Shown here piece after piece: positions 2,674 through 28,507 of a stretch of DNA of 31,885 bases. The notes under the pieces are model-generated. The model was not told the origin of the DNA. It did no database searches and saw nothing but the letters and a program-made list of their open reading frames with translations. The position numbers and the translations under genes were made by a program. Position 1 is the stretch's first letter; every line of letters begins with the position of its first letter. This stretch comes from a virus, in the IMG/VR virus record IMGVR_UViG_3300013002_000047, positions 1-31,885 of that record. One strand, given 5' to 3'.

Positions 2674-3006
2674 TTAATACCTTGGTACCGTAACCAACTG
2701 TACATCGATTTGAATCTTCCATTGCGCATCATCTTGCTTTCCTTTGAACATCTTCAAATCACCCTCAAGCAAGACTGGGATGCCATTCAATTGGGCCTCC
2801 TTTAAGACATCAGCGTTACCAAAGTCGCTGAACTCGATGATGACCTTACCTCTGTTACCTACGCCCTCGATTGAGCCAAGACTCATCGTTTGTCCTGAAG
2901 CGGTTGGAAACTGGGTAAGTTGCTGAATCATGCCTGAGATGGCTACTTGGTTGACCTGACTAGAGGCCGTGAAGTTCTTTGCTGTTTCTGATTGTTCTTG
3001 AATCAT
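2674..3006 (-). CDS. hypothetical protein (110 aa)
   Basis: ORF-track ORF with GAAGGA upstream of the ATG. I recognise no motif. Confidence 0.6.
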   Translation of the reverse strand: MIQEQSETAKNFTASSQVNQVAISGMIQQLTQFPTASGQTMSLGSIEGVGNRGKVIIEFSDFGNADVLKEAQLNGIPVLLEGDLKMFKGKQDDAQWKIQIDVQLVTVPRY

Positions 3007-3169
3007 GTTATATCCTTCTTTCTATGTGCGATAAGGTAAACTATATGCCTTTGTTATTTAACCAGACGTTCTTAATATGCAGTCAATATTTAAAAAGTAT
3101 TTATTTTGAACGCTTTTGATGAAATTGTATAATAAGTTGCCTCATATCGCTGTCTTATGTATGAGTCTC

Positions 3170-4795
3170 TCACGGTTTGTTTATATATAGGCCTAAGGCC
3201 TTTTTGACTGTAACTTGCGTCATGTTGTATTGTGCCTTGAACTTACGTTGGCTCAGCGTCTGTACGTCATTCTTAAGTTGCTCACGTTGCTCTTCTGATA
3301 GTGAGTTAATCATGAGCTGGACCTTACCACGGCCAACCCTTTTAGAACCATTCTCAGAGTTGATTGATTGGATATAAGGCTTGTAAAACAGGTCCTTGTA
3401 ATTTGGTAAGAATCCCAACTTCAAAGCTCTTCCAACTGGATATTTAGCAAATGCCCTGCGTAGTTGGTCTTCTGTGTACATCGCTGATGTGACATTATAA
3501 TCCTCAAGCACACGTTCATCTTCTGCCGGTAATTCAATCGTTCCAAAGATGTCCCCAAACAATCCGTAGACCTCTTCAAACGTCTTCTCTTCACGGAGCT
3601 CTAACATACGGTTGAATAATTCCTTTACAGCCATCTCTGACTTAAGGTGCATCTTAGCTTCACGCATCGAGGCTGGACGATTTAATAGCATCTTGCGGAA
3701 CTCATCCTTGTTACCTACCAGTTGCGCTAGAGCTGTGCCACGCGACATTGCGACGTATAGGTTATTATTTGTGTAATAAGATGTTGCCTTTTTACTGATT
3801 GGTTCATTTCCCAAGAACACCAACACAGAACCCTTATAAGTTGCCCCTTGCACTGTATGAGGCACTGCATATGCTGATAATTCAAGCTTCTTTAAATCAA
3901 TCCCCTTATCAAGCTCCTTAACAAACGGGAATACCTTCTTCAAAGATTCATAATCTCGATTTTCTGGATTAAGCCAAACCTTGCTATCGTCTCGAACAAA
4001 TGGGAAGTAGCCTAACGCATCGTCTCCAAACTCACCTAGGATAATGTCATTCAATACTTGTCCACGCTTGTGTGATAAAGCAACCATCAAACGATTGTTC
4101 TTAACAGCATCGATAACAACATCATGGTACACAACCCCTTCTGGCTCATCTGATTGAATATCAATGGCCTTATCGATAACTGTGTTGATGTATTCATCAT
4201 CATATCCGTTAGAGAATCCTTGTGATGCCAATCGGTAATTCTTGTTAAGAATCGTTAACGGGATTTGGGTGTCTTCAAGGTACCAAGACTTTGGAGCTGT
4301 CAAGAACTCAAAGTCAACGTTCTGGTAAGCTTCCGCTGTCCAATCCCATACAGGCTGGTCAACGGTTGCTGATAGAAGCAACTCAAGCACTGAGTGTCCG
4401 GCTGGGACGTTTAATTGCTTCAAATCCCCGACCAAAGTGATTACAGCTCCTTGAACGTGCTGTGAGCGATACATCAATGACGTAAAGTGTGTATCTGGGA
4501 ATTGAGAAGCTTCTTCGATGTAAATCCGGTCATAGGCTTCCGTGTATCCATACATAACCTTGATACGCTTGTACTTCAATTCCTTAAGAGCATTCAAGCG
4601 TTCTTCCGATGACTCAATACCCATAGCTGTATCAATCGTTGCCCTTAACGATTCTCTACTTCCGTGCGTCGGTGTTATGGCAATCACTTGGTGTCCCATC
4701 AACATATCGTCTACTGCCATTTGTACAAGCTTCGTGCTCTTTGCTGTTCCAGGTTGACCCAAGATGGCCCTAATCTTATTACTGTTTAAATTCAT
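3170..4795 (-). CDS. superfamily 1 helicase (RecD/viral-helicase-like P-loop NTPase)
   Basis: 541 aa. Walker A GQPGTAKST; Walker B IYIEEASQ; motif III LVGDLKQL; motif IV NKNYRLA; motif V TVQGATYKGSVLVF; motif VI LYVAMSRGT. Confidence 0.8.
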   Translation of the reverse strand: MNLNSNKIRAILGQPGTAKSTKLVQMAVDDMLMGHQVIAITPTHGSRESLRATIDTAMGIESSEERLNALKELKYKRIKVMYGYTEAYDRIYIEEASQFPDTHFTSLMYRSQHVQGAVITLVGDLKQLNVPAGHSVLELLLSATVDQPVWDWTAEAYQNVDFEFLTAPKSWYLEDTQIPLTILNKNYRLASQGFSNGYDDEYINTVIDKAIDIQSDEPEGVVYHDVVIDAVKNNRLMVALSHKRGQVLNDIILGEFGDDALGYFPFVRDDSKVWLNPENRDYESLKKVFPFVKELDKGIDLKKLELSAYAVPHTVQGATYKGSVLVFLGNEPISKKATSYYTNNNLYVAMSRGTALAQLVGNKDEFRKMLLNRPASMREAKMHLKSEMAVKELFNRMLELREEKTFEEVYGLFGDIFGTIELPAEDERVLEDYNVTSAMYTEDQLRRAFAKYPVGRALKLGFLPNYKDLFYKPYIQSINSENGSKRVGRGKVQLMINSLSEEQREQLKNDVQTLSQRKFKAQYNMTQVTVKKALGLYINKP

Positions 4796-4926
4796 CTTTA
4801 TTTCCTTCTCTTTCTGATTTCTGATTTGGGCTTATCACCCTCTACATATATAGTTCATTGCTCTTAGTTTATAGTCACGTTTTATGTTACGAGTTTGTTA
4901 CAAATCGAGACACGTATCTCCTCATC

Positions 4927-4935
4927 TGTTATAAT
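4927..4935 (+). promoter_or_regulatory. candidate extended -10 promoter (TGTTATAAT) facing the helicase promoter
   Basis: TGnTATAAT match; GAGACA lies 17 nt upstream. Would transcribe rightward into the AT-rich tract. Confidence 0.3.
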
Positions 4936-4970
4936 TGAAGAGACAAACTCTAAATTCCTTTGTTAATACA

Positions 4971-4979
4971 ATTATACCA
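4971..4979 (-). promoter_or_regulatory. candidate extended -10 promoter (TGGTATAAT) for the helicase operon
   Basis: The reverse complement of attatacca is TGGTATAAT, about 170 nt upstream of the helicase ATG. The -35 is weak. Confidence 0.35.
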
Positions 4980-5039
4980 CGTTCCTTTCTTTGGATGTGA
5001 GAACCTCAATCTTATGACTTGACATTCTGATTGAAGTGT

Positions 5040-5160
5040 GATTTTTATTACTACACTTATTAATTTACCTATAACTTTTTAAAAAGTGCCATTTTGGCCC
5101 TATTTCGTCTAACCAATAATTGATTTGAAGTTAAATTTTATATAATTTCTTGTAAACCCT
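5040..5160. other. AT-rich tract (candidate DNA-unwinding element / origin flank)
   Basis: Hand counts of the two 60-nt lines 5041-5100 and 5101-5160 give 15/60 and 12/60 G+C. No ORF. Lies upstream of the helicase gene. Confidence 0.35.
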
Positions 5161-5245
5161 TGATACATAAGTTTTCTTGGGTGTTTTGGCATTCCAACAC
5201 AGGGTAATTCCAAGATTCTTAAGTGATAATTTAACGACTTGTCTT

Positions 5246-5270
5246 ATAAGGGGACATACCTTATTTTTAT
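5246..5270 (+). terminator. weak plus-strand intrinsic terminator
   Basis: ATAAGG ggacata CCTTAT followed by TTTTAT. Confidence 0.3.
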
Positions 5271-5457
5271 CACTTTTCCGTAAGTTATCTTCATAAGTCC
5301 TTCCCAAAGAACAATCATCATACCCATAGCTGAATAAGGTTTAATTCTGAAGAAGCGGTTTTCTTCTGAAGGATTATAAGCTTATTACAGGACCTCTGGG
5401 GTCTATCCCAGTTTGGGTGAAGACAACTTGTTGTCGAGGGCTGAATAAGCCCTGTAC

Positions 5458-5747
5458 CTTAGGTTAACTGAAGCAACTTAGGGTATTCCCAAAGTATTCC
5501 CTATGATACAGGGCAATGTTGCCCTCTCTCCAGTCGCAAAGCTCCTTACGATTCACCTCCAATTCTTTCTGATAAAGAAGCAATCCATTGATAATCCCTT
5601 GTTCATCAGGAAGAAAAAACCACTTCCTTTCAGAACAATTTCTTATCATGCTACCAACTTAGGGTCTTTTTTCAGCTTTATTACTTAAGGAAGTACACAG
5701 GGTTAACCTAAGTCCCTCAAACAGCCTAAGCCACTTATCCCCCTAAG
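5458..5747. repeat. Cluster of six CTTAGG/CCTAAG hexamers (three forward, three reverse) around a central CTTAAG palindrome
   Basis: CTTAGG at 5458, 5477 and 5658. CTTAAG at 5684. CCTAAG at 5707, 5725 and 5742 (17-18 bp spacing). A variant lies at 5819. The chance expectation for this span is far below one. Confidence 0.85.
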
Positions 5748-5770
5748 TCATTCCCCCATCGTTAGAATGC

Positions 5771-5834
5771 CAAAAACCCCCTAGCAAACCAGCCGAGGAA
5801 TCCACCAAGGTCAAGAATGCTAAGGGGTCTTTTT
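5771..5834. terminator. hairpin flanked by an A-run and a T-run (possible bidirectional terminator)
   Basis: CCCCCTAGC (5777-5785) pairs with GCTAAGGGG (5819-5827) with one mismatch. It is preceded by caaaaa and followed by tcttttt. Confidence 0.4.
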
Positions 5835-5843
5835 GTGCACCAA

Positions 5844-5957
5844 TCCTATCAGGCGTATGTCAGGAATGCCAATCTCCTATGTTCCCCACTTACGGGGACG
5901 CTCAATGCTCAGTTGCTTATGGTACGCCTCCTATCACAGCCACTGAGTATCCTATCA
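5844..5957. repeat. TCCTATCA iterons (three exact copies plus one TCCTATGT variant)
   Basis: Copies at 5844, 5929 and 5950 (exact) and 5875 (variant). Spacings are 31, 54 and 21 bp, close to integral helical turns. Confidence 0.8.
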
Positions 5958-6027
5958 TGGGCATTTTGCCCAGCTTATGTGGCTTATGGGCGGTCACCTA
6001 ACGGAGCGTTATATTTTACCGATTGAA

Positions 6028-6043
6028 AATAACACAAATGTTA
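6028..6043. promoter_or_regulatory. operator-like site AATAACACAAATGTTA (palindromic core TAACA-N4-TGTTA), copy 1
   Basis: Exact 16-mer also at 6690-6705. Extra TAACA/TGTTA half-sites at 6079, 6096 and 6110. Confidence 0.55.
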
Positions 6044-6065
6044 CTGTTAACGCCTGATATATCAA
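6038..6065 (-). promoter_or_regulatory. candidate minus-strand promoter TTGATA-N16-TAACAT overlapping operator copy 1
   Basis: -35 is the reverse complement of 6060-6065; -10 is the reverse complement of 6038-6043. Would transcribe into the GC-richer ORF-free block. Confidence 0.4.
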
Positions 6066-6181
6066 GCTTTCTCATGAATAACAATACGGAATTTTTGTTA
6101 ATATTTTTGTAACAATAGGTCTCCGTTCAATGTTTCCGGTACATCCAGGTGTCAAGCCCTAGTTTTTAGGGAATTATCCCC

Positions 6182-6210
6182 TTGAAAACAAAATGAAAGC
6201 TTGTCATAAT
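6182..6210 (+). promoter_or_regulatory. plus-strand promoter TTGAAA-N17-CATAAT with TG extension
   Basis: TTGAAA at 6182-6187; TGt-CATAAT at 6202-6210. Lies 70 nt upstream of a plus-strand ATG that has an RBS. Confidence 0.5.
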
Positions 6211-6280
6211 AAGGTTTGTCAGATTAATCAGCAAGCTTCTGGTGAATGCACGTCCTGTCTTCAAGAAAGGATGTTAATTT

Positions 6281-6319
6281 ATGGCAAAACAAAAACAAAA
6301 AGGCGTTAAGTTACCCTAG
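6281..6319 (+). CDS. 12-aa Lys-rich leader ORF (MAKQKQKGVKLP)
   Basis: GAAAGGA lies 9 nt upstream of the ATG. Ends in TAG TGA. The stop overlaps the GTG of the next ORF. Confidence 0.3.
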   Translation: MAKQKQKGVKLP

Positions 6320-6489
6320 TGATTATCGCCATAATAGTGTTTATGATTCATCGAGTTGAAGAATTATCTAGGCTCGTGAGTTTAATTCCAGCACCATATC
6401 GAGATGCTTGGGTTCAGGAAGCGTTTAATTACGCATCCCGTTACCTACCATCTGAATTTGTGGCCTGGTGGTACAGAATACACAAGTAG
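6319..6489 (+). CDS. hypothetical 56-aa membrane protein, possibly translationally coupled to the leader ORF
   Basis: The GTG at 6319 overlaps the TAG of the leader (uaGUG). Product: VIIAIIVFMIHRVEELSRLVSLIPAPYRDAWVQEAFNYASRYLPSEFVAWWYRIHK. It has no RBS of its own. Confidence 0.35.
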   Translation: MIIAIIVFMIHRVEELSRLVSLIPAPYRDAWVQEAFNYASRYLPSEFVAWWYRIHK

Positions 6490-6512
6490 ACTGTGCAACT
6501 GCCATATGCAGA

Positions 6513-6560
6513 CAAAAAAATACACCCAGGATATAAACTTGGCCGTTTATCCTTAGGTGT
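6513..6560 (-). terminator. minus-strand intrinsic terminator ending the 10142-6818 operon
   Basis: On the minus strand: ACACCTAAGGATA...TATCCTGGGTGT followed by ATTTTTTTGT. Confidence 0.6.
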
Positions 6561-6638
6561 CATATGTTATGCACGTGGCATTTATCTATATTTTTAAGTG
6601 TTATAAGACGTGTATATCGCCAGAATTAATTCTGACTT

Positions 6639-6676
6639 GAACCCTAGGAATTGCAGTTCTTAGGGTTCTTATTTTT
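6639..6676 (+). terminator. plus-strand intrinsic terminator of the small plus-strand cassette
   Basis: GAACCCTAGGAA ttgcag TTCTTAGGGTTC (one mismatch) followed by ttattttt. Confidence 0.65.
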
Positions 6677-6689
6677 CTTATGCATTAAT

Positions 6690-6705
6690 AATAACACAAA
6701 TGTTA
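6690..6705. promoter_or_regulatory. operator-like site AATAACACAAATGTTA, copy 2
   Basis: Exact repeat of 6028-6043, directly after the plus-strand terminator. Confidence 0.55.
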
Positions 6706-6817
6706 TATCATACAACAGACTTTGAAAGATTATGACACTTTACAATAGATTACTGCTTGTTGATGGCCTCTACGATACTTTGTGTAGCATCAGCAGTTTC
6801 TCCATCCTCAGTTTCAC

Positions 6818-8539
6818 TCAGAATGACTTAGGAATCCGAAACTTTTGATTCTCAATCCATTCTCTATCGGTATTAGAGATATGTTCACCAACATTTACCT
6901 CCCATAATTCTATGGTTTCTAATACCGCTTCGAAGTTATGTAACCTTTTATAATTCATAGCCATACGCTTGTATAACTTACTGTGTTGGGTAAATCCATC
7001 ACACAACAAGTCATTAAGGATTTTATTTGAGTATACAAAATCCTTTTCATCAATAGCAATACGATTTGCTTTAACAAACTTCTTTATAAATCTATTTTTC
7101 CTCTGTTCATCTGTTTCAACCACCCTAACCTTAGGCATTGCCCATCTCATTTTAAGTGTCGCATGAGCTTTAAAATGAGTTCCAAGTGTCATTCTTTCAA
7201 TCTCATAAATACGTTGCTCATACAACACATCATTTTCAGCTGAATGTTGTGCTAAATTTAATACACCAACATCTTCTTTGTAATACGCAATATAATCATC
7301 AACTCTATGATGACTCCATCCTTTATTTGCAAAATACTTACCAATAATCATAGTATCCCCAAAGGGATTAGTTAAGTCTCCTAACTCATGTTTATGCATG
7401 TTAAATCTTAAAAACGTCAAGTCAAAACCAATATTATGACCTATTAAAACATCATTACCAATAAATGAAATAAACCCCCGTAGCAACAGTTCTATGTCTA
7501 ATCCACTGTCAATATCTTCTTGTTGGATAGGTGAATTTTCTTTTAGAAATTTAGATAGGTATGATTTATTATTAAATCCCTGGAACTTGTCAATTATTGC
7601 TCCATCTCTAACTTTAACTGCAGCAATCTGAACAATTAAATCTTCCTCATAATCAAATCCAGTTGTTTCAACGTCTACAACTACATATTCATCGAAGAAT
7701 TCAATTCCTGTACGCTCATAATTCAAGTAAAAATTCCGATATTCAGGGTCATCAATTCCCGAAGGAACTGGCATATCTGCTGTTCCAGATTCACGCCTAA
7801 ACTCATCTATTTCATCAAGTAAAGTAGTATTATTTGTATCATTTTCAATTGAATCTGATGTTGGAGGCATATCTTCATGAATAACTTCTAGAGTAACTAA
7901 TTCATCAGGTTCACCTAAATATTCATCAACATCTTCAATCATTACTTCCTCATGAATGGGCTCTTTGCCTGATTCAATATTTGAAGTTTCTTGAGGTAAA
8001 ACAGTAGGAATTTCAACTAATTCTCTTTCTGCTTCAGCTTCATCTGACTCATAAATATTTTCCGTATGATTAACAACAGCATCTAACGCTTCATCATTGG
8101 TAAATTCATCTCTGTGACGCAACGAGTAAATGAAGGTGCGTATCATAAAAATGATAGCCCAAACAATCCATCCAAACACACCCAGTAACATGGGAACAGG
8201 CACTGTAATACCCAGAAGGAAGATAGGAATAACGCTGATAAACATCCACTTCATTTCCTTTTGATACTTAGCTGGCCAGTGACGATAGCTCATCTTTGAC
8301 TCAGGTACATTCTCAAGGCGCTCTGTGAGGCTTCTATGTGGCTTCTGAATCTTCTTAGCACCCTTCTCATCGACCCAGCTAAGACCGGTCCCAGGTATGC
8401 CCACAGTGGTTCTAGTGCGACCATTGGCCGTCTTAGTGTAGCGTGCCCCTTTAGTCCCCACAGACCAGCCAACACCCGACTTAGAGGCGTTAATTCTGAC
8501 CGGTCCCATCTTAATTGATTTGCGGTATCTCATTCCCAT
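6818..8539 (-). CDS. DUF4236-like N-terminal domain, transmembrane segment and DEDDh (DnaQ-like) 3'-5' exonuclease fusion protein
   Basis: 573 aa. N-terminus MGMRYRKSIKMGPVRINASKSGVGWSVGTKG. Hydrophobic stretch FISVIPIFLLGITVPVPMLLGVFGWIVWAIIFMI. Acidic linker. Exo motifs VVDVETTG, GHNIGFDLTFL and HSAENDV. Confidence 0.75.
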   Translation of the reverse strand: MGMRYRKSIKMGPVRINASKSGVGWSVGTKGARYTKTANGRTRTTVGIPGTGLSWVDEKGAKKIQKPHRSLTERLENVPESKMSYRHWPAKYQKEMKWMFISVIPIFLLGITVPVPMLLGVFGWIVWAIIFMIRTFIYSLRHRDEFTNDEALDAVVNHTENIYESDEAEAERELVEIPTVLPQETSNIESGKEPIHEEVMIEDVDEYLGEPDELVTLEVIHEDMPPTSDSIENDTNNTTLLDEIDEFRRESGTADMPVPSGIDDPEYRNFYLNYERTGIEFFDEYVVVDVETTGFDYEEDLIVQIAAVKVRDGAIIDKFQGFNNKSYLSKFLKENSPIQQEDIDSGLDIELLLRGFISFIGNDVLIGHNIGFDLTFLRFNMHKHELGDLTNPFGDTMIIGKYFANKGWSHHRVDDYIAYYKEDVGVLNLAQHSAENDVLYEQRIYEIERMTLGTHFKAHATLKMRWAMPKVRVVETDEQRKNRFIKKFVKANRIAIDEKDFVYSNKILNDLLCDGFTQHSKLYKRMAMNYKRLHNFEAVLETIELWEVNVGEHISNTDREWIENQKFRIPKSF

Positions 8540-10142: not shown

Positions 10143-10210
10143 GGTGTACCTCCGTATAATCCATAGTTCAGCTATTTACTTACATGATACCACGCAGTAC
10201 GAACCGCGAT

Positions 10211-10323
10211 ACGATACAAATCAGACGATAGGGGAATCTTTATAAAAGAATGGTTGTTCACTTATACGTATCAAGGCCTGTATCGTCATAACAACTGAAT
10301 AGGGGTCTGTTTTACGATACAAA
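10211..10323. promoter_or_regulatory. ACGATACAAA direct repeats plus an inverted GTATCGT upstream of the HTH gene (candidate operators)
   Basis: ACGATACAAA at 10211 and 10314. GTATCGT at 10280. All lie in the 5' leader/promoter region of 9588-10142. Confidence 0.3.
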
Positions 10324-10355
10324 AAAGACATCCCAAGATGGTGCTCTGGAATGTC
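10319..10355 (-). terminator. minus-strand intrinsic terminator closing the ORF-free block
   Basis: On the minus strand: GACATTCCAGAG cacca TCTTGGGATGTC (with G-U pairs) followed by TTTTTTGT. Confidence 0.55.
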
Positions 10356-10358
10356 CTA

Positions 10359-11298
10359 AAAGATTACGCTTGATTTCAGCAAAGTCATTATATCCACAAA
10401 GGTCCATATAAAGCCAGCATCACGTATACCAATCAAAGGTTACATAATCTTGATTATACTGAGTTGCCCAATTACCAAGGGCTCAAGGTGGATTGCTCAA
10501 TCAGCCAATTTCACAAAGTCATATAAGTCCCTCTGGGGCATTTCACAAGCGCCATAGGTGGTCAAATTTCACAAAGTAGACCACTGATACATAATAGGCT
10601 GTGGTATCACTGGCTATCGCATCCAGTGAACCTAAGAGGCAACCAAACGCTATCCACCACGCACGCTGGACAAGTTCGATAATGTGAAGCCGATAAGGTT
10701 GGAATCACGCACGATAGGTAACAACCGGCACTTAGTAGCCTCACCGGCAGGCCAGCCACCTGATTGATTCCATCAATAAAAGCTCTTGACGTGCAAGACC
10801 CAATCAGCCACTTTGAGCGCTTGTCATGCTCCGGAGTATACAGTTGTCCCCTGAGTAGGAATCACAGAACAAATAAATGCTCTATGATGTTGGACAACTG
10901 CTCTAAAGCCACTTCTCACGAAGCCACGACCATCGAAACTCTGCTTGTTGTTAATCAAATCCTCACGCCTCTGATACTCCTACGTGTAATGGTTTCCCAT
11001 CGTGGACATGCCTTTCTGTACCTCTGCCCTCAAACGCCCTATATGAGCCTCTGAGAGCCTTTTAGCCACCCTGTCTGTTACCGGTAAGTAACTTCTGTTT
11101 TTACCATGCGATTTCTCGTTTAGGCTTTGCCATTTGGCTTGGAAGCATCAAAGACCGCTTACGCTCCCCGCACCCCTTAGATGTGAAGCAGTCACACCTT
11201 TGGGCATCTATTTGAATAATCGGGGTTGATGTTCCCCGCCATTGCTGGATAACCTGCTAACGGGGGTCTAACCCGTTGCCAAATGAACCTATAAGTAC
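10359..11298 (-). ncRNA. about 0.94-kb ORF-free, GC-richer, hairpin-dense block bounded by two minus-strand terminators (candidate large structured RNA or origin; strand inferred)
   Basis: No ORF with an RBS in any frame. Hand counts of lines 10681 and 10741 give 29/60 and 31/60 G+C. Many GC stems, including CAGTTGTCC/GGACAACTG and two GNRA-loop hairpins. Confidence 0.3.
10508..10576. repeat. three direct copies of ATTTCACAA(A)G
   Basis: Copies start at 10508, 10540 and 10566. The 12-mer TTTCACAAAGTC recurs inverted at 31218-31229. Confidence 0.8.
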
Positions 11299-11353
11299 AA
11301 AAAAAAGATTCCATACATTACGTGCCTTCATCTAACACGCTCTGTACGGAATC
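11299..11353 (-). terminator. minus-strand intrinsic terminator
   Basis: On the minus strand: GATTCCGTAC ... GTATGGAATC followed by TTTTTTTTGTAC. Confidence 0.6.
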
Positions 11354-11401
11354 CTTGAGTAATCTCCTGACCTTTTACAGTCCTGTTTGGAGCCTTACCT
11401 G

Positions 11402-11429
11402 TTGATTACACTTCTTGATATGGTATAAT
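11402..11429 (+). promoter_or_regulatory. plus-strand promoter TTGATT-N16-TATAAT with TG extension
   Basis: TTGATT at 11402-11407; TGgTATAAT at 11421-11429. Confidence 0.55.
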
Positions 11430-11534
11430 GATTATACGAAATCAGGAAGTTAAAAACGTGCCATATGAGTTCTGGTCATTTGGCACAGCTCGTAACTGAA
11501 GTTGGTAGCTTCTGTCACTTGCCTTTACTGATAT

Positions 11535-11563
11535 TTAATTGATAGACTAAGTTTATCAATTAA
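11535..11563. promoter_or_regulatory. perfect 10-bp inverted repeat TTAATTGATA-N9-TATCAATTAA (operator or RNA hairpin)
   Basis: Read directly from the sequence. Overlaps the -10 region of the minus-strand TTGACA promoter. Confidence 0.6.
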
Positions 11564-11579
11564 TCCGGCGTTTTGTCAA
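11550..11579 (-). promoter_or_regulatory. minus-strand promoter TTGACA-N18-TAAACT
   Basis: The consensus -35 is the reverse complement of 11574-11579. Would yield an RNA of about 250 nt ending at terminator 11299-11353, antisense to the 5' part of the plus-strand RNA. Confidence 0.4.
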
Positions 11580-11656
11580 GATAACCCCTTGGGCTATCAA
11601 GGTTTAAGCGCATACACAGCATATTTCTACTCCATAGAATTGCTAAACATACTGAA

Positions 11657-11694
11657 GCTTGTTGTTTGTCCTCCAAGACACAACAGGCTTTTTT
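11657..11694 (+). terminator. plus-strand intrinsic terminator
   Basis: GCTTGTTGT ... ACAACAGGC (9 bp including one G-U pair) followed by TTTTTT. Confidence 0.65.
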
Positions 11695-11796
11695 ATTACC
11701 CTAAAAACACTCCCTGACAGCGTTTCTGTGTAACAAAGTGGACCAAATACCACTAAGTAATGAACTTTTTGGACCTCTGAGAGCAATTCTTATACA

Positions 11797-11854
11797 CAAA
11801 AAAAGCCCCCTGACCGAGCATAGGACCGTTAAATCCTAAGCCAATCAGAGGGCT
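11797..11854 (-). terminator. intrinsic terminator after the endolysin gene
   Basis: On the minus strand: AGCCCTCTGA, a 31-nt loop, TCAGGGGGCT, then TTTTTTTGTG. Confidence 0.65.
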
Positions 11855-11859
11855 TTATC

Positions 11860-28023: not shown

Positions 28024-28299
28024 CTATTTCTTGTAAACATCACCACGCTTGGCAACTTGCAGAACTAATACAGTTAACATCTCATCTCTGATGTCTGCGA
28101 TGATTCTATAACCACCAACTCGGTATCTCCAAAGGGTCTTAAAGTTACCCTTTAAAGCCTTCCCTTGTAGTCTAGGGTCAGCTGTATTCTGTATGTTCTC
28201 ATCAAGCCACTTCAAAACTCTAATTTGAACTGGCTTATCCAGCTTCTTAAAGTTTTTTAAGGCCTTCTCGTCAAATTGCCATTGAAACATTTTATTCAC
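28024..28299 (-). CDS. RelE/ParE-superfamily toxin
   Basis: 91 aa. The C-terminal WRYRVGGYRIIADIRDEMLTVLVLQVAKRGDVY pattern is typical of RelE/ParE toxins. Overlaps the antitoxin gene by 8 nt. Confidence 0.85.
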   Translation of the reverse strand: MNKMFQWQFDEKALKNFKKLDKPVQIRVLKWLDENIQNTADPRLQGKALKGNFKTLWRYRVGGYRIIADIRDEMLTVLVLQVAKRGDVYKK

Positions 28300-28507
28300 C
28301 CATAATCTGCTTCAAAACTTCATCACGTGATACGGTAGCATTATTTTCATTCAAGACAGCAATACCTTGCGCATAGTCTAACTCGTCTTCGATACGGCTC
28401 ATTAAAGTTTCTCGAATAAAGTCAGCCAACGTCTCACCATGAAATTCAGCAGATTCCTTTATTAAGTTATGTTGCTCATCATTTAAACGAACAGTTAACG
28501 TTGTCAT
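28292..28507 (-). CDS. RelB/ribbon-helix-helix-type antitoxin
   Basis: 71 aa. TVRLNDEQHNLIKESAEFHGETLADFIRETL is RHH-like. Lies upstream of, and overlaps, the toxin gene. Confidence 0.8.
   Translation of the reverse strand: MTTLTVRLNDEQHNLIKESAEFHGETLADFIRETLMSRIEDELDYAQGIAVLNENNATVSRDEVLKQIMGE

Follow-up and report, generated by a model that had tools for sequence, protein, structure and literature searches.

Bacteria and their viruses have so far yielded very few large structured RNAs, and each new class, among them OLE, GOLLD, ROOL and raiA, has opened new biology. Among plasmids, ColE1 RNA II is a structured RNA of about 550 nt that is transcribed towards the origin, and its folding decides on a persistent hybrid and priming, with no plasmid initiator. 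Origins of phages of lactic-acid bacteria are used for phage-encoded resistance and for vector replicons. The origin of lactococcal Ceduovirus (c2-type) phages is a non-coding region between two promoters, where an untranslated, structure-dependent transcript is implicated in initiation, and its ori types have no mutual sequence similarity (PMC7150918). ROOL and GOLLD are encoded by phages and prophages, often near tRNA islands, and their function is unknown; like OLE, they form homo-oligomers via intermolecular pairs (PMC12286853).

We analysed a stretch of viral DNA of 31,885 nucleotides (IMG/VR record IMGVR_UViG_3300013002_000047; hereafter the window), in which a preliminary description had noted two families of short repeats in a 2-kb gap upstream of the helicase gene and had proposed an origin or a protein-sponge RNA. 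From comparison with related loci, we regard the gap as the probable site of a candidate new large structured phage RNA, read from the gene-sense strand, with the repeats as its parts. Against Rfam, the window and nine related loci scored no match at gathering thresholds, nor did window positions 4700-6900 at E <= 10 or six loci at E <= 1; the element most likely belongs to no described RNA family. The repeats, too, are most likely parts of a conserved non-coding element and not free-standing protein-binding iterons. Among possible functions, we consider an RNA-dependent replication origin the most likely, at somewhat under even chances.

The non-coding gap and its relatives

The gap is real and spans 4796-6817 of the window, between an exonuclease and a helicase gene, but it is not empty, as a small plus-strand cassette lies inside it (6182-6668). 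All phage genes lie on the window minus strand, referred to here as the gene-sense strand. Pfam and PHROGs recognised only three early genes, those for a RecD/Dda-like helicase, a DnaQ-like exonuclease and an HNH protein. Genes for an initiator (Rep), a primase or a polymerase were not recognisable among the early genes with the same resources, and no tRNA or tmRNA genes were found in the window.

The comparison covered every relative that could be retrieved and comprises 11 loci in five sequence lineages. Lineage A consists of the window, L008 and L007; the others include lineage B, L001 and L017, the last of which is a Weissella hellenica prophage (GCA_045527645.1). The order of exonuclease, gap (1.0-2.3 kb) and helicase is kept in 11 of the 11 loci that have both genes. 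The structured core of the gap, delimited below, is 71-81% identical in DNA sequence to L007 and L008, whereas in the neighbouring helicase gene the DNA can be aligned over about 130-146 nt only; helicase proteins are 33-45% identical. This comparison indicates that the non-coding DNA of the gap is under selection, its core being better kept than the DNA of the adjoining helicase gene. When six-frame open reading frames of at least 30 amino acids were compared among all gaps, none was conserved between lineages and only short multi-frame fragments were shared within lineage A. A pseudogene reading was dropped, since the reading frames are not conserved among the gaps.

Neither the gap nor 25 kb of the window had a DNA match among GenBank phages, whose closest helicase, from Enterococcus phages, is 28% identical. 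No additional members were found in IMG/VR (searched with the helicase protein, two RNA patterns and the exonuclease alignment), in JGI metagenomes (exonuclease alignment and RNA pattern) or in GTDB genomes (exonuclease alignment). The lineage-B RNA pattern returned only chance matches from GTDB genomes, as checked with model R1. The family is small and rare, comprising one small group of Weissella-type phages. Rep3 plasmids carry a 131-nt match to the region, which we considered as an independent module and rejected; it is a truncated 5' part of the region, travelling with the exonuclease gene.

Helices of the structured core

The core is about 610 nt long (5785-5175, minus strand) and is bounded in every lineage by a long closing helix, P1. 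In the window, P1 pairs TTGGCATTC with GAATGCCAA (5785-5761 with 5200-5175, minus strand). Its 5' arm, GGGGGUUUUUGGCAUUCUAAC (5761-5785), contains the last of three TTGGCATTC-like copies, and its 3' arm, GUUGGAAUGCCAAAACACCC (5175-5200), marks where the structured core ends on the 3' side. The predicted helix has 34 bp and -41.7 kcal/mol, a value that none of 200 shuffles reaches. It is bipartite, with TTGGCATTC...GGGGG facing CCCUG...GAAUGCCAA, and an equivalent bipartite closing helix is present in all lineages; the duplexes range from -28 to -58 kcal/mol and are matched by no shuffle (0/200) in seven of ten loci. In L008, the block UGGCAUUUUUGGCAU co-varies with AUGUCAAAAAUGUCA and includes two G.U pairs. 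Across lineages, the pair beside GGCAUU also switches, from C:G in A and L001 to G:C in B and L017. On these alignments, P1 is supported by block covariation. In all lineages, TTGGCATTC-like words occur as direct copies 5' of the core and as inverted copies 3' of it. A MITE or other mobile element, as inverted repeats flanking 550 bp might suggest, was rejected on three grounds, namely the synteny of the element, its divergence along with that of the phages and the compensatory changes that maintain its inner hairpins.

Within the core, four hairpins, H1-H4 (5453-5351, minus strand), follow in the same order in all lineages while their sequences differ. Pairs change on both sides in four of the six pairs of H1 (5437-5453; nine sequences), six of the seven of H2 (5422-5435) and five of the six of both H3 (5396-5411) and H4 (5351-5367), the last with a conserved loop, AAAACC(G/A). 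The variants of H2, for example, are GACAAC/GUUGUC, GACAGC/GCUGUC, AGCUG/CAGCU, GACUCUC/GAGAGUC and GCUUGC/GCAAGC. The alignment behind these counts was fitted to the hairpins by hand, leaving out the junctions and padding with N. In it, all 202 cells pair (two as G.U, the others Watson-Crick), 20 of 25 pairs change on both sides, and no shuffle of 500 does as well; in slid controls, 40-56% of cells pair. The hand alignment, controlled by an objective motif search, was used because automatic alignments misplaced the hairpins: MAFFT did so across lineages, and an iterated covariance model misaligned L007 and L008. The search for an H1-H2-H3 triple hairpin returned exactly 5396-5453 (minus strand) in the window and one syntenic site in each of the 10 other loci, on a background of 11 matches per Mb of shuffled sequence. 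A covariance model built from lineage B alone found the syntenic place in the window (5345-5454, minus strand) weakly (E = 1.3), and also L008 (E = 0.02) and L007 (E = 9e-4). The element agrees with large structured RNAs in general in being non-coding, with no conserved reading frame, and in having helices kept by compensatory change (H1-H4).

Further hairpins are predicted in the central domain (5511-5627, minus strand), namely GGAAG...CUUCC (5609-5627), CGUAAG...CUUUGCG (5535-5550) and H0, GGGCAACAUUGCCC (5511-5524). Read off the alignment, H0 becomes GGAGC...GCUCC in L008 and GGGC...GCCC in L007, changes that were left out of the formal count because of indels.

The short repeats occupy both the core and the sequence before it. 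A recount confirmed all of the motif positions described previously: CTTAGG at 5458, 5477 and 5658, CCTAAG at 5707, 5725 and 5742, CTTAAG at 5684, TCCTATCA at 5844, 5929 and 5950 (with no other copy in the window), TCCTATGT at 5875, and GTATTCCC at 5483 and 5494. The start of CCCTAAGT had been given as 5740 and is correctly 5741. The enrichment of the hexamers also stands, with six copies in 290 bp against 0.047 + 0.060 expected, and TCCTATCA has three copies in 120 bp against 0.003 expected (both first-order Markov). The hexamer cluster is unusual but not overwhelming alone, since six of 100 simulated windows hold six copies of any hexamer plus its complement within 300 bp. Instead of the "about eight" further copies reported before, 22 occur elsewhere in the window (12 CTTAGG and 10 CCTAAG), and the two words are about twofold over-represented across it.

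On the gene-sense strand, most of the hexamers fall into two tracts of about 50 nt each. The 5' tract (5749-5700) holds three CUUAGG words, e1 (5739-5749), e2 (5720-5734) and e3 (5702-5712), corresponding to CCTAAG at 5742, 5725 and 5707. The 3' tract (5501-5455) holds a duplicated GGGAAUAC, which is the GTATTCCC pair at 5483 and 5494, and two CCUAAG words, m (5473-5487) and l (5458-5468), corresponding to CTTAGG at 5477 and 5458. RNAduplex predicts -44.3 kcal/mol for tract against tract in the window, matched by two of 200 shuffles, and in the window, L008 and L001 (the last with other words) one or two of 200 shuffles are as good. The idea that forward and reverse hexamers form long-range RNA helices is borne out to the extent that the two tracts are strongly complementary in the window and its relatives. 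They are best read as the putative strands of a long, irregular, register-ambiguous stem. The conserved best partner of e2 is m in all three lineage-A sequences, and for e2 with m and e3 with l together 92.5% of cells pair, compared with 24-48% when the partner is slid by one to three columns. CTTAGGTTAAC (5458) and GTTAACCTAAG (5702) are perfectly complementary over 11 nt, and this previously proposed helix (5458-5468 with 5702-5712) is kept in L008 via a compensatory change from U-A to A-U. Covariation in the hexamer helices is thin, at one compensatory pair from three sequences, and is equalled by 249 of 500 shuffles. The register is ambiguous because the same word is used three times. A nested register would pair e2 with l and e3 with m, while a crossing register would pair e2 with m and e3 with l and could represent a pseudoknot, alternative conformers or intermolecular pairing.

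The third CCUAAG copy, f (5654-5666, minus strand; CTTAGG at 5658), lies inside the central domain and is changed to CUUAAG in L008 and CUUAUG in L007; the lineage-A pairing comparison revealed no consistent partner for it. CCUAAG was also considered as part of an 11-nt GAAA-tetraloop receptor, a reading rejected on inspecting the sequence, in which no matching UAUGG strand or GAAA loops were seen. In related genomes, the element and its pairing are kept, but copy number, spacing and words vary: L007 lacks one hexamer copy, L008 has extra ones, and L001 has different words at the equivalent place (CUGAAG/CUUCAG and CUUAAG). Clustered short inverted words in phage gaps can be the trace of long-range RNA stems and not of iterons.

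Transcription signals, strand and competing explanations

Ahead of the core, a 5' leader (about 6015-5835, minus strand) carries four UGAUAGGA-like copies, all of them outside the core itself; on the gene-sense strand, the TCCTATCA copies read TGATAGGA(T). Two UGAUAGGA copies (5947-5957 and 5926-5936, equal to TCCTATCA at 5950 and 5929) belong to a nearly invariant hairpin element (5920-5995, minus strand), about 90% identical to L007 and L008. Covariation bears on this hairpin neither way, as its predicted stems CGCC/GGCG, GCCAC/GUGGC and GGGC/GCCC never vary. The fourth copy (TCCTATCA at 5844) is the -10 box of a promoter-like site, TTGGCA-N18-TG-a-TAGGAT (5872-5843, minus strand), identified by promoter scan. 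The site occurs only in the window, in L008 (3282-3309, with a 16-nt spacer, also by promoter scan) and in the plasmid L003; L007 has an inserted small gene in its place. Upstream of the leader lies a conserved 18-mer, ATTGTTACAAAAATATTA (6099-6116, minus strand), with the palindrome TTGTnACAA. L001 has a 100% identical copy and L007 one with a single mismatch in 18 positions, both within different flanking sequence. TTGTnACAA appears again at 4894-4904, upstream of the helicase gene, where lineage B has TTTGTGACAAA. We consider ATTGTTACAAAAATATTA a candidate promoter- or operator-like site.

Between the upstream promoter-like site and the core stands T1 (5830-5770, minus strand), a strong hairpin between an A-tract on its 5' side and a U-tract on its 3' side, whose 3' arm overlaps the 5' arm of P1. 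Its predicted stability is -34 kcal/mol (z = -3.9) on the minus strand versus -25.9 kcal/mol on the plus strand; it is kept in L008, L007 and L003 (-28 to -40 kcal/mol), and it has an invariant U.G pair that is C.A on the other strand. T1 looks like an intrinsic terminator of upstream, exonuclease-side transcription. After the core, all lineages have an AT-rich stretch, in the window a spacer at 4980-5174 (minus strand) with a GC content of about 0.29 and 82% identity to L007, which separates the core from the helicase operon promoter. The extended -10 box of this promoter, TGGTATAAT (4971-4979, minus strand), is conserved in all of lineage A, L001 has TGTTATAAT there, and the box faces TGtTATAAT on the plus strand (4927-4935). 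By promoter scan, predicted promoters flank the region.

Strand indicators lean to the gene-sense strand, although they are not decisive. In eight of nine loci, P1 has the lower energy on this strand, by 4-14 kcal/mol, and the consensus folding energy is better on it in three alignments. Pairs predicted on both strands have equal counts of G.U and A.C cells and are uninformative on strand, and there was no enrichment of GNRA tetraloops to serve as a strand indicator. The core has no convincing promoter of its own on the gene-sense strand and no terminator after it, and a good terminator, T1, precedes it. On the opposite strand, a good promoter (4907-4935; 10/12 matches plus TG) and the A-tract side of T1 would frame a neat unit of about 890 nt in lineage A.

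A gene-sense RNA would run from the leader through T1 (5830-5770) into the core (5785-5175), closed by P1 and followed by the hexamer stem, H1-H4 and further helices. Transcription would begin at the promoter-like site at 5872-5843 or upstream of it, pass through T1 and head for the AT-rich stretch and the helicase gene, and the RNA would prime or open the DNA. That it acts in cis, as an element of the phage replication origin, strikes us as the most likely function, at somewhat under even chances, a reading that draws on position and analogy, with the c2 PE1-T transcript and ColE1 RNA II as models. A cis role is favoured by the place of the element in the replication module, which is the same in every lineage, and an RNA-dependent origin would explain how replication could start without a recognisable initiator, primase or polymerase. 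We speculate further, and with considerably more reserve, that the element may represent an undescribed class of ornate RNA of about 600-900 nt in Weissella siphophages and prophages, forming the RNA part of an initiator-free origin. Its complementary words would form a register-shifting or intermolecular stem, a conformational switch or self-association that licenses initiation.

The next most likely function, a real possibility although we doubt it, is that of an ornate RNA working in trans outside replication, comparable to ROOL or GOLLD, with repeated words that may pair molecules in self-assembly. The element agrees with such an RNA in its size (about 600-900 nt), its numerous helices, its closed architecture and its occurrence in phages and prophages of Lactobacillales, and the best-supported hexamer helices, e2 with m and e3 with l, cross, which fits a pseudoknot or intermolecular pairing. 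On the other hand, we find no sequence or structure match to ROOL or GOLLD and no tRNA genes nearby, and the strictly fixed position in the replication module favours a cis role. Rather improbable, in our estimate, is a functional plus-strand RNA, antisense to the genes, that would start from the promoter at 4907-4935 and extend over roughly 890 nt (about 4942-5835), ending on the A-tract side of T1. Its promoter, GAGACA-17-TATAAT with TG (10/12), is the best match in the gap, the extended -10 box is kept in L008 (TGGTATAAT), L007 (TGATATAAT) and L001 (TATAAT), the A-tract upstream of T1 allows termination both ways, and the well-supported hairpins, made of Watson-Crick pairs throughout, can form on both strands. 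However, lineage B has a degenerate box (TATATC, TATGTA) and lacks an antisense terminator ahead of its core. In nearly all loci, P1 and T1 lose stability on the plus strand, which also turns both G.U pairs of P1 in L008 into A.C. Another possibility is that the two -10 boxes facing each other form an inverted repeat of operator type across the helicase promoter.

Taken at the DNA level, the preliminary description's origin would have CTTAGG/CCTAAG and TCCTATCA as iterons bound by an initiator protein, which we think improbable. The repeats are indeed enriched and lie in the replication module, adjoining an AT-rich stretch, and the direct and inverted TTGGCATTC-like words flanking the core in all lineages could be read by a dimeric DNA-binding protein. 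Nevertheless, the copies have only 6-8 nt in common (6 nt among the hexamers), number and spacing vary among close relatives and the words differ among lineages. No regular array of 17-22 bp direct repeats with conserved number and phase exists, the repeat report listing no tandem families, and we found no Rep/initiator gene and no DnaA box with <= 1 mismatch in the window gap. Iterons would also leave the compensatory changes in H1-H4 and the G.U-tolerant changes in P1 unexplained. A structure in single-stranded DNA, used for lagging-strand priming or helicase loading like the single-strand origins of rolling-circle plasmids or primosome assembly sites, seems very unlikely. The supported hairpins are nearly pure Watson-Crick (2 G.U in 202 cells), and the phage encodes a helicase with no primase recognised; yet P1, T1 and the hexamer stem use several G.U pairs, which are weak in DNA, and the element is far larger than known single-strand origins, at about 150-300 nt. 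We give hardly any credence to the protein-sponge RNA proposed earlier, whose UGAUAGGA/AGGA copies would serve to titrate either ribosomes or an RNA-binding protein. Four AGGA-containing copies do lie within 115 nt, two of them in the nearly invariant hairpin element. There are only these four, however: copy 2 is not conserved in L008, where it reads CAUGGGUGG, copy 4 coincides with the promoter-like -10 box, lineages B, L001 and L017 do not have the motif, and the copies form no tandem array of the kind seen in type III antitoxins.

Comparison with described systems

The element resembles iteron origins in its clustered short repeats beside an AT-rich stretch in the replication module. Iteron origins have direct repeats of 17-22 bp in regular arrays with a cognate Rep, whereas the copies here have 6-8 nt in common, are divided three plus three in inverted orientation at a distance of 230-290 nt, and vary among relatives. 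Type III toxin-antitoxin loci have tandem repeats of about 34-36 nt by a toxin gene, or many GGA loops, and we found neither arrangement here. ColE1 RNA II differs in being part of an enterobacterial plasmid system regulated by antisense RNA I, and neither an RNase H site nor Pol I dependence can be inferred for the phage element.

The c2-type origin, with its PE1-T transcript, is similar in that several hundred bp of non-coding DNA are involved in a phage of lactic-acid bacteria. The c2 region has two promoters in the same direction, the second of which drives early or replication genes, and both the length and the structure of its untranslated transcript matter. In the element, the predicted downstream promoter recurs in lineage A, with a similar box in L001, and the putative upstream one is confined to the window, L008 and L003 and is followed by T1. 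The c2-type ori types share function and position with no sequence similarity, and the five lineages described here share an architecture with little sequence. The c2 origin differs in lying between divergent early and late blocks and not between exonuclease and helicase genes. The present element, characterized from its sequence alone, further differs in the terminator-like hairpin T1 between the putative promoter and the core, and the GenBank phage search showed no sequence similarity.

ROOL and GOLLD resemble the element in their size of 600-900 nt, their many helices, covariation-supported stems and low sequence conservation, and their presence in phages and prophages, those of Lactobacillales included. 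The differences are that the element has no Rfam match, even at E <= 1-10, no tRNA neighbours, a fixed place in the replication module and a distribution confined to one small phage group. Its position in the replication module gives a testable functional hypothesis, an RNA-dependent origin, which ROOL and GOLLD do not have.

Locus organisation and relatives

The window is a ~32 kb siphophage with every gene on the minus strand, including those for terminase, portal, capsid and tail proteins, a GH25 lysin, a RecD/Dda-like helicase and a DnaQ-like exonuclease with a DUF4236 domain. We found no similar sequence among the GenBank phages, IMG/VR, JGI metagenomes and GTDB genomes searched. The gap reported between the helicase and exonuclease genes (4796-6817) is real, and eleven loci, obtained through protein searches followed by retrieval of the contigs concerned, show the same arrangement of an exonuclease gene, a gap of 1.0-2.3 kb and a helicase gene. 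By sequence, the loci form five lineages: the window, L008 and L007 (lineage A); L001 by itself; the temperate, integrase-bearing lineage B (L009, L010, L012, L021, L022 and L023); L017, a Weissella hellenica prophage; and a Rep3 plasmid lineage (L003-L006) with the exonuclease gene and a truncated 5' piece of the gap. The lineage A gaps align collinearly on the gene-sense (window minus) strand, with 71-81% DNA identity in the ~610-nt core (5785-5175), and the adjacent helicase gene has diverged nearly beyond DNA alignment. The lineages have no conserved gap ORF in common, no tRNA genes were found, and no lineage gave an Rfam match at gathering thresholds or permissive E-values.

The plasmid locus (L003-L006, 7575-7860) combines Rep3/resolvase/MmeI plasmid genes with a phage-type DUF4236-exonuclease gene. 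It keeps the first ~260 nt of the non-coding region (promoter-like site, terminator-like hairpin T1, GGCATTC copies and the first two CUUAGG copies, e1 and e2) and ends after e2, which is evidence of phage-plasmid exchange. A second long gap in the window (10143-11859, 1.7 kb) separates the early genes from the lysin gene; it contains no convincing ORFs and is 75-78% identical to the equivalent place in L007. At this position temperate relatives encode an integrase and, on the reverse strand, a 297-aa ORF. No remnant of either was detected in the window (tblastn of L012 proteins against the whole window), which points to a lytic derivative or a different module. In L012 (950-967) and L017 (2860-2877), 18-nt matches to the tmRNA 3' end adjoin the integrase genes, which suggests that these prophages integrate into ssrA. 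A ParE-family toxin gene and a small gene resembling an antitoxin (RHH/TacA/DUF6290) also occur in the window, on the minus strand at ~28024-28507, where they separate the portal gene from that of the large terminase.

Structure of the core

GC content is 0.42-0.50 across 5300-6000 versus ~0.29-0.34 in the flanks. Adjoining the left side of the repeat interval are four minus-strand hairpins, H1 (5437-5453), H2 (5422-5435), H3 (5396-5411) and H4 (5351-5367), whose order and spacing are constant in all lineages and whose sequences differ. In a hand-built alignment with junctions removed and N padding, standard pairs occupy 202 of 202 cells and both sides have changed in 20 of 25 pairs, a level reached by none of 500 shuffles; moving the partner by 1-3 columns gave 40-56% pairing. 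Because this alignment was fitted by hand, we added an objective check, searching for runs of three perfect hairpins at the H1-H3 spacings. It returned exactly one syntenic site per locus in all eleven loci (5396-5453 in the window); elsewhere it gave four matches in ~290 kb, and shuffled sequence gave 11 per Mb. A covariance model built from lineage B only recovered the lineage A sites at the expected coordinates, weakly (E = 9e-4 in L007, 0.02 in L008 and 1.3 in the window).

In every lineage the core is closed by a long bipartite helix, P1, which pairs 5' TTGGCATT(C/G)...GGGGG with 3' CCCUG...(G/C)AATGCCAA (window 5785-5761 with 5200-5175). The window duplex (34 bp, -41.7 kcal/mol) was equalled by 0/200 shuffles, as were those of 7 of 10 loci overall. 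Next to GGCAUU, lineages A and L001 have a C:G pair and lineages B and L017 a G:C pair; L008 has a co-varying block, UGGCAUUUUUGGCAU with AUGUCAAAAAUGUCA.

The preliminary description had drawn attention to repeated words, whose coordinates we reproduced except that CCCTAAGT starts at 5741, one position off. The claimed hexamer enrichment is borne out, with six CTTAGG/CCTAAG copies in the 290-bp span versus ~0.11 expected under a first-order Markov model. There are, however, 22 more copies rather than about eight, the word being ~twofold over-represented across the whole window, and a cluster of six of some hexamer within 300 bp arose in 6 of 100 simulated sequences; the cluster alone is thus suggestive, not compelling. 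Under the same type of model, TCCTATCA occurs three times versus 0.003 expected in 120 bp, and has no copy in the rest of the window.

On the gene-sense strand, the CUUAGG copies e1, e2 and e3 lie immediately after P1 (5749-5700), and two CCUAAG copies, m and l, immediately before H1 in a 3' tract (5501-5455) that includes the duplicated GTATTCCC. Of the long-range helices suggested between these words, the complementarity holds: the tracts pair at -44.3 kcal/mol in the window (2/200 shuffles), -43.6 in L008 (1/200), -33.4 in L007 (21/200) and, with other repeated words (UUCUGAAG/CUUCAG and CUUAAG), -38.4 in L001 (2/200), and more weakly in lineages B and L017. The best partner of e2 is m in all three lineage A sequences (15-21 bp). 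The 11-bp helix proposed between e3 and l is kept in L008, where it reads AUAGGUUAAC/GUUAACCUAU with a compensatory U-A to A-U change, and is absent from L007, which has no e3. Pairing occupies 92.5% of cells in the hexamer helices versus 24-48% in slid controls, but covariation is not significant, as three sequences offer only one compensatory pair. Repetition of the word makes the register ambiguous: the stem may be nested (e2 with l, e3 with m) or crossing (e2 with m, e3 with l). Neither the third CCUAAG copy, f (5654-5666), nor the CTTAAG palindrome is conserved as a word, and no partner could be assigned to either.

Repeated purine-rich modules of the type GGAGC(C)GAAG(G)CG(U/G)AACGG, enclosed by GGGCUU...AAGCCC stems, occur in lineages B, L017 and L001 (cores of L012, e.g. 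6650-6790, L009, L017 and L001) and in one L007 hairpin. They are gained or lost as whole units between relatives, and may represent a recurring tertiary-structure motif.

Leader and strand

The TCCTATCA copies are confined to lineage A and all lie outside the core. Two fall within a nearly invariant 76-nt hairpin element (5995-5920), where lack of variation leaves no covariation. Another serves as the extended -10 box within TTGGCA-N18-TGaTAGGAT (5872-5843), a promoter-like site that is flagged in L008 as well, and the variant CAUAGGAG lies just upstream of its -35 box. T1 (5830-5770), a hairpin that is both strong and conserved and has A- and U-tracts, separates this site from the core.

Several other features surround the leader. 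In L007, an insertion (7483-7927) interrupts the leader and stands in place of the window's promoter-like site. It brings a strong promoter of its own (TTGACT-N17-TATAAT with TG) together with a 48-aa ORF containing the internal repeat EEDSR..L..F.D. A 22-nt direct repeat, ATTRAWAATAACACAAATGTTA (6022-6043 and 6684-6705, 91% identical), brackets a small plus-strand cassette (6182-6668), opposite to all phage genes, comprising a promoter-like site (6182-6210), a tiny ORF from 6283, a 56-aa ORF (6319-6489) and a terminator (6639-6668). The 56-aa ORF matches the C-terminal portion of a longer antisense ORF in L008 (170 aa, 2763-3275), and the cassette resembles a moron that was inserted and has partly decayed. 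Copies of the palindrome TTGTnACAA lie upstream of the leader (6099-6116) and just upstream of the helicase gene (4894-4904), with TTTGTGACAAA at the equivalent place in lineage B (L012 7420, L021 7356, L022 7263); these sites resemble operators for a putative regulator, bracketing the whole element. An inverted repeat (4927-4947/4959-4979) carries facing extended -10 boxes, TGtTATAAT (plus strand) and TGGTATAAT (minus strand), ~40 bp centre to centre, with predicted transcripts overlapping by ~20 nt. Lineages A and L001 preserve this arrangement, which in lineage B is degenerate; it may represent a pair of convergent promoters or an operator covering the helicase promoter.

Strand assignment is the weakest point of the gene-sense RNA reading. 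Several indicators favour the gene-sense strand: P1 is 4-14 kcal/mol more stable on it in 8 of 9 loci and includes two G.U pairs in L008, T1 contains a U.G pair that never varies and gains 8 kcal/mol in stability, consensus folding energies are better in three alignments, and lineage B has neither an antisense promoter nor an antisense terminator. Against this strand, T1 is expected to halt sense transcription right before the core, no promoter lies between the two, and in lineage A a good plus-strand promoter (4907-4935) and T1 would frame an antisense unit. Pairs predicted on both strands are uninformative.

Possible roles and known systems

Among the roles considered, we tentatively place an RNA-dependent origin as the likeliest, given that the element has a fixed place in the replication module, that no initiator, primase or polymerase is recognisable, that in all lineages the core is followed by an AT-rich stretch and the helicase promoter, and that Ceduovirus (c2-type lactococcal phages) offers a precedent. 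Ceduovirus origins are non-coding regions flanked by two promoters, with an untranslated transcript implicated in initiation, and their ori types share a function and no common sequence (PMC7150918). Nearly as likely is a trans-acting or self-assembling RNA resembling the large ornate ROOL and GOLLD RNAs (PMC12286853), although the window element falls outside both families in their membership tests. We rate four further readings as less likely: an iteron origin, a sponge RNA, a site in single-stranded DNA and a mobile element. The element has no Rfam counterpart, and we found no description of it in the literature searched. We file it among the large structured non-coding RNAs of phages, as a member of narrow distribution and putative expression.
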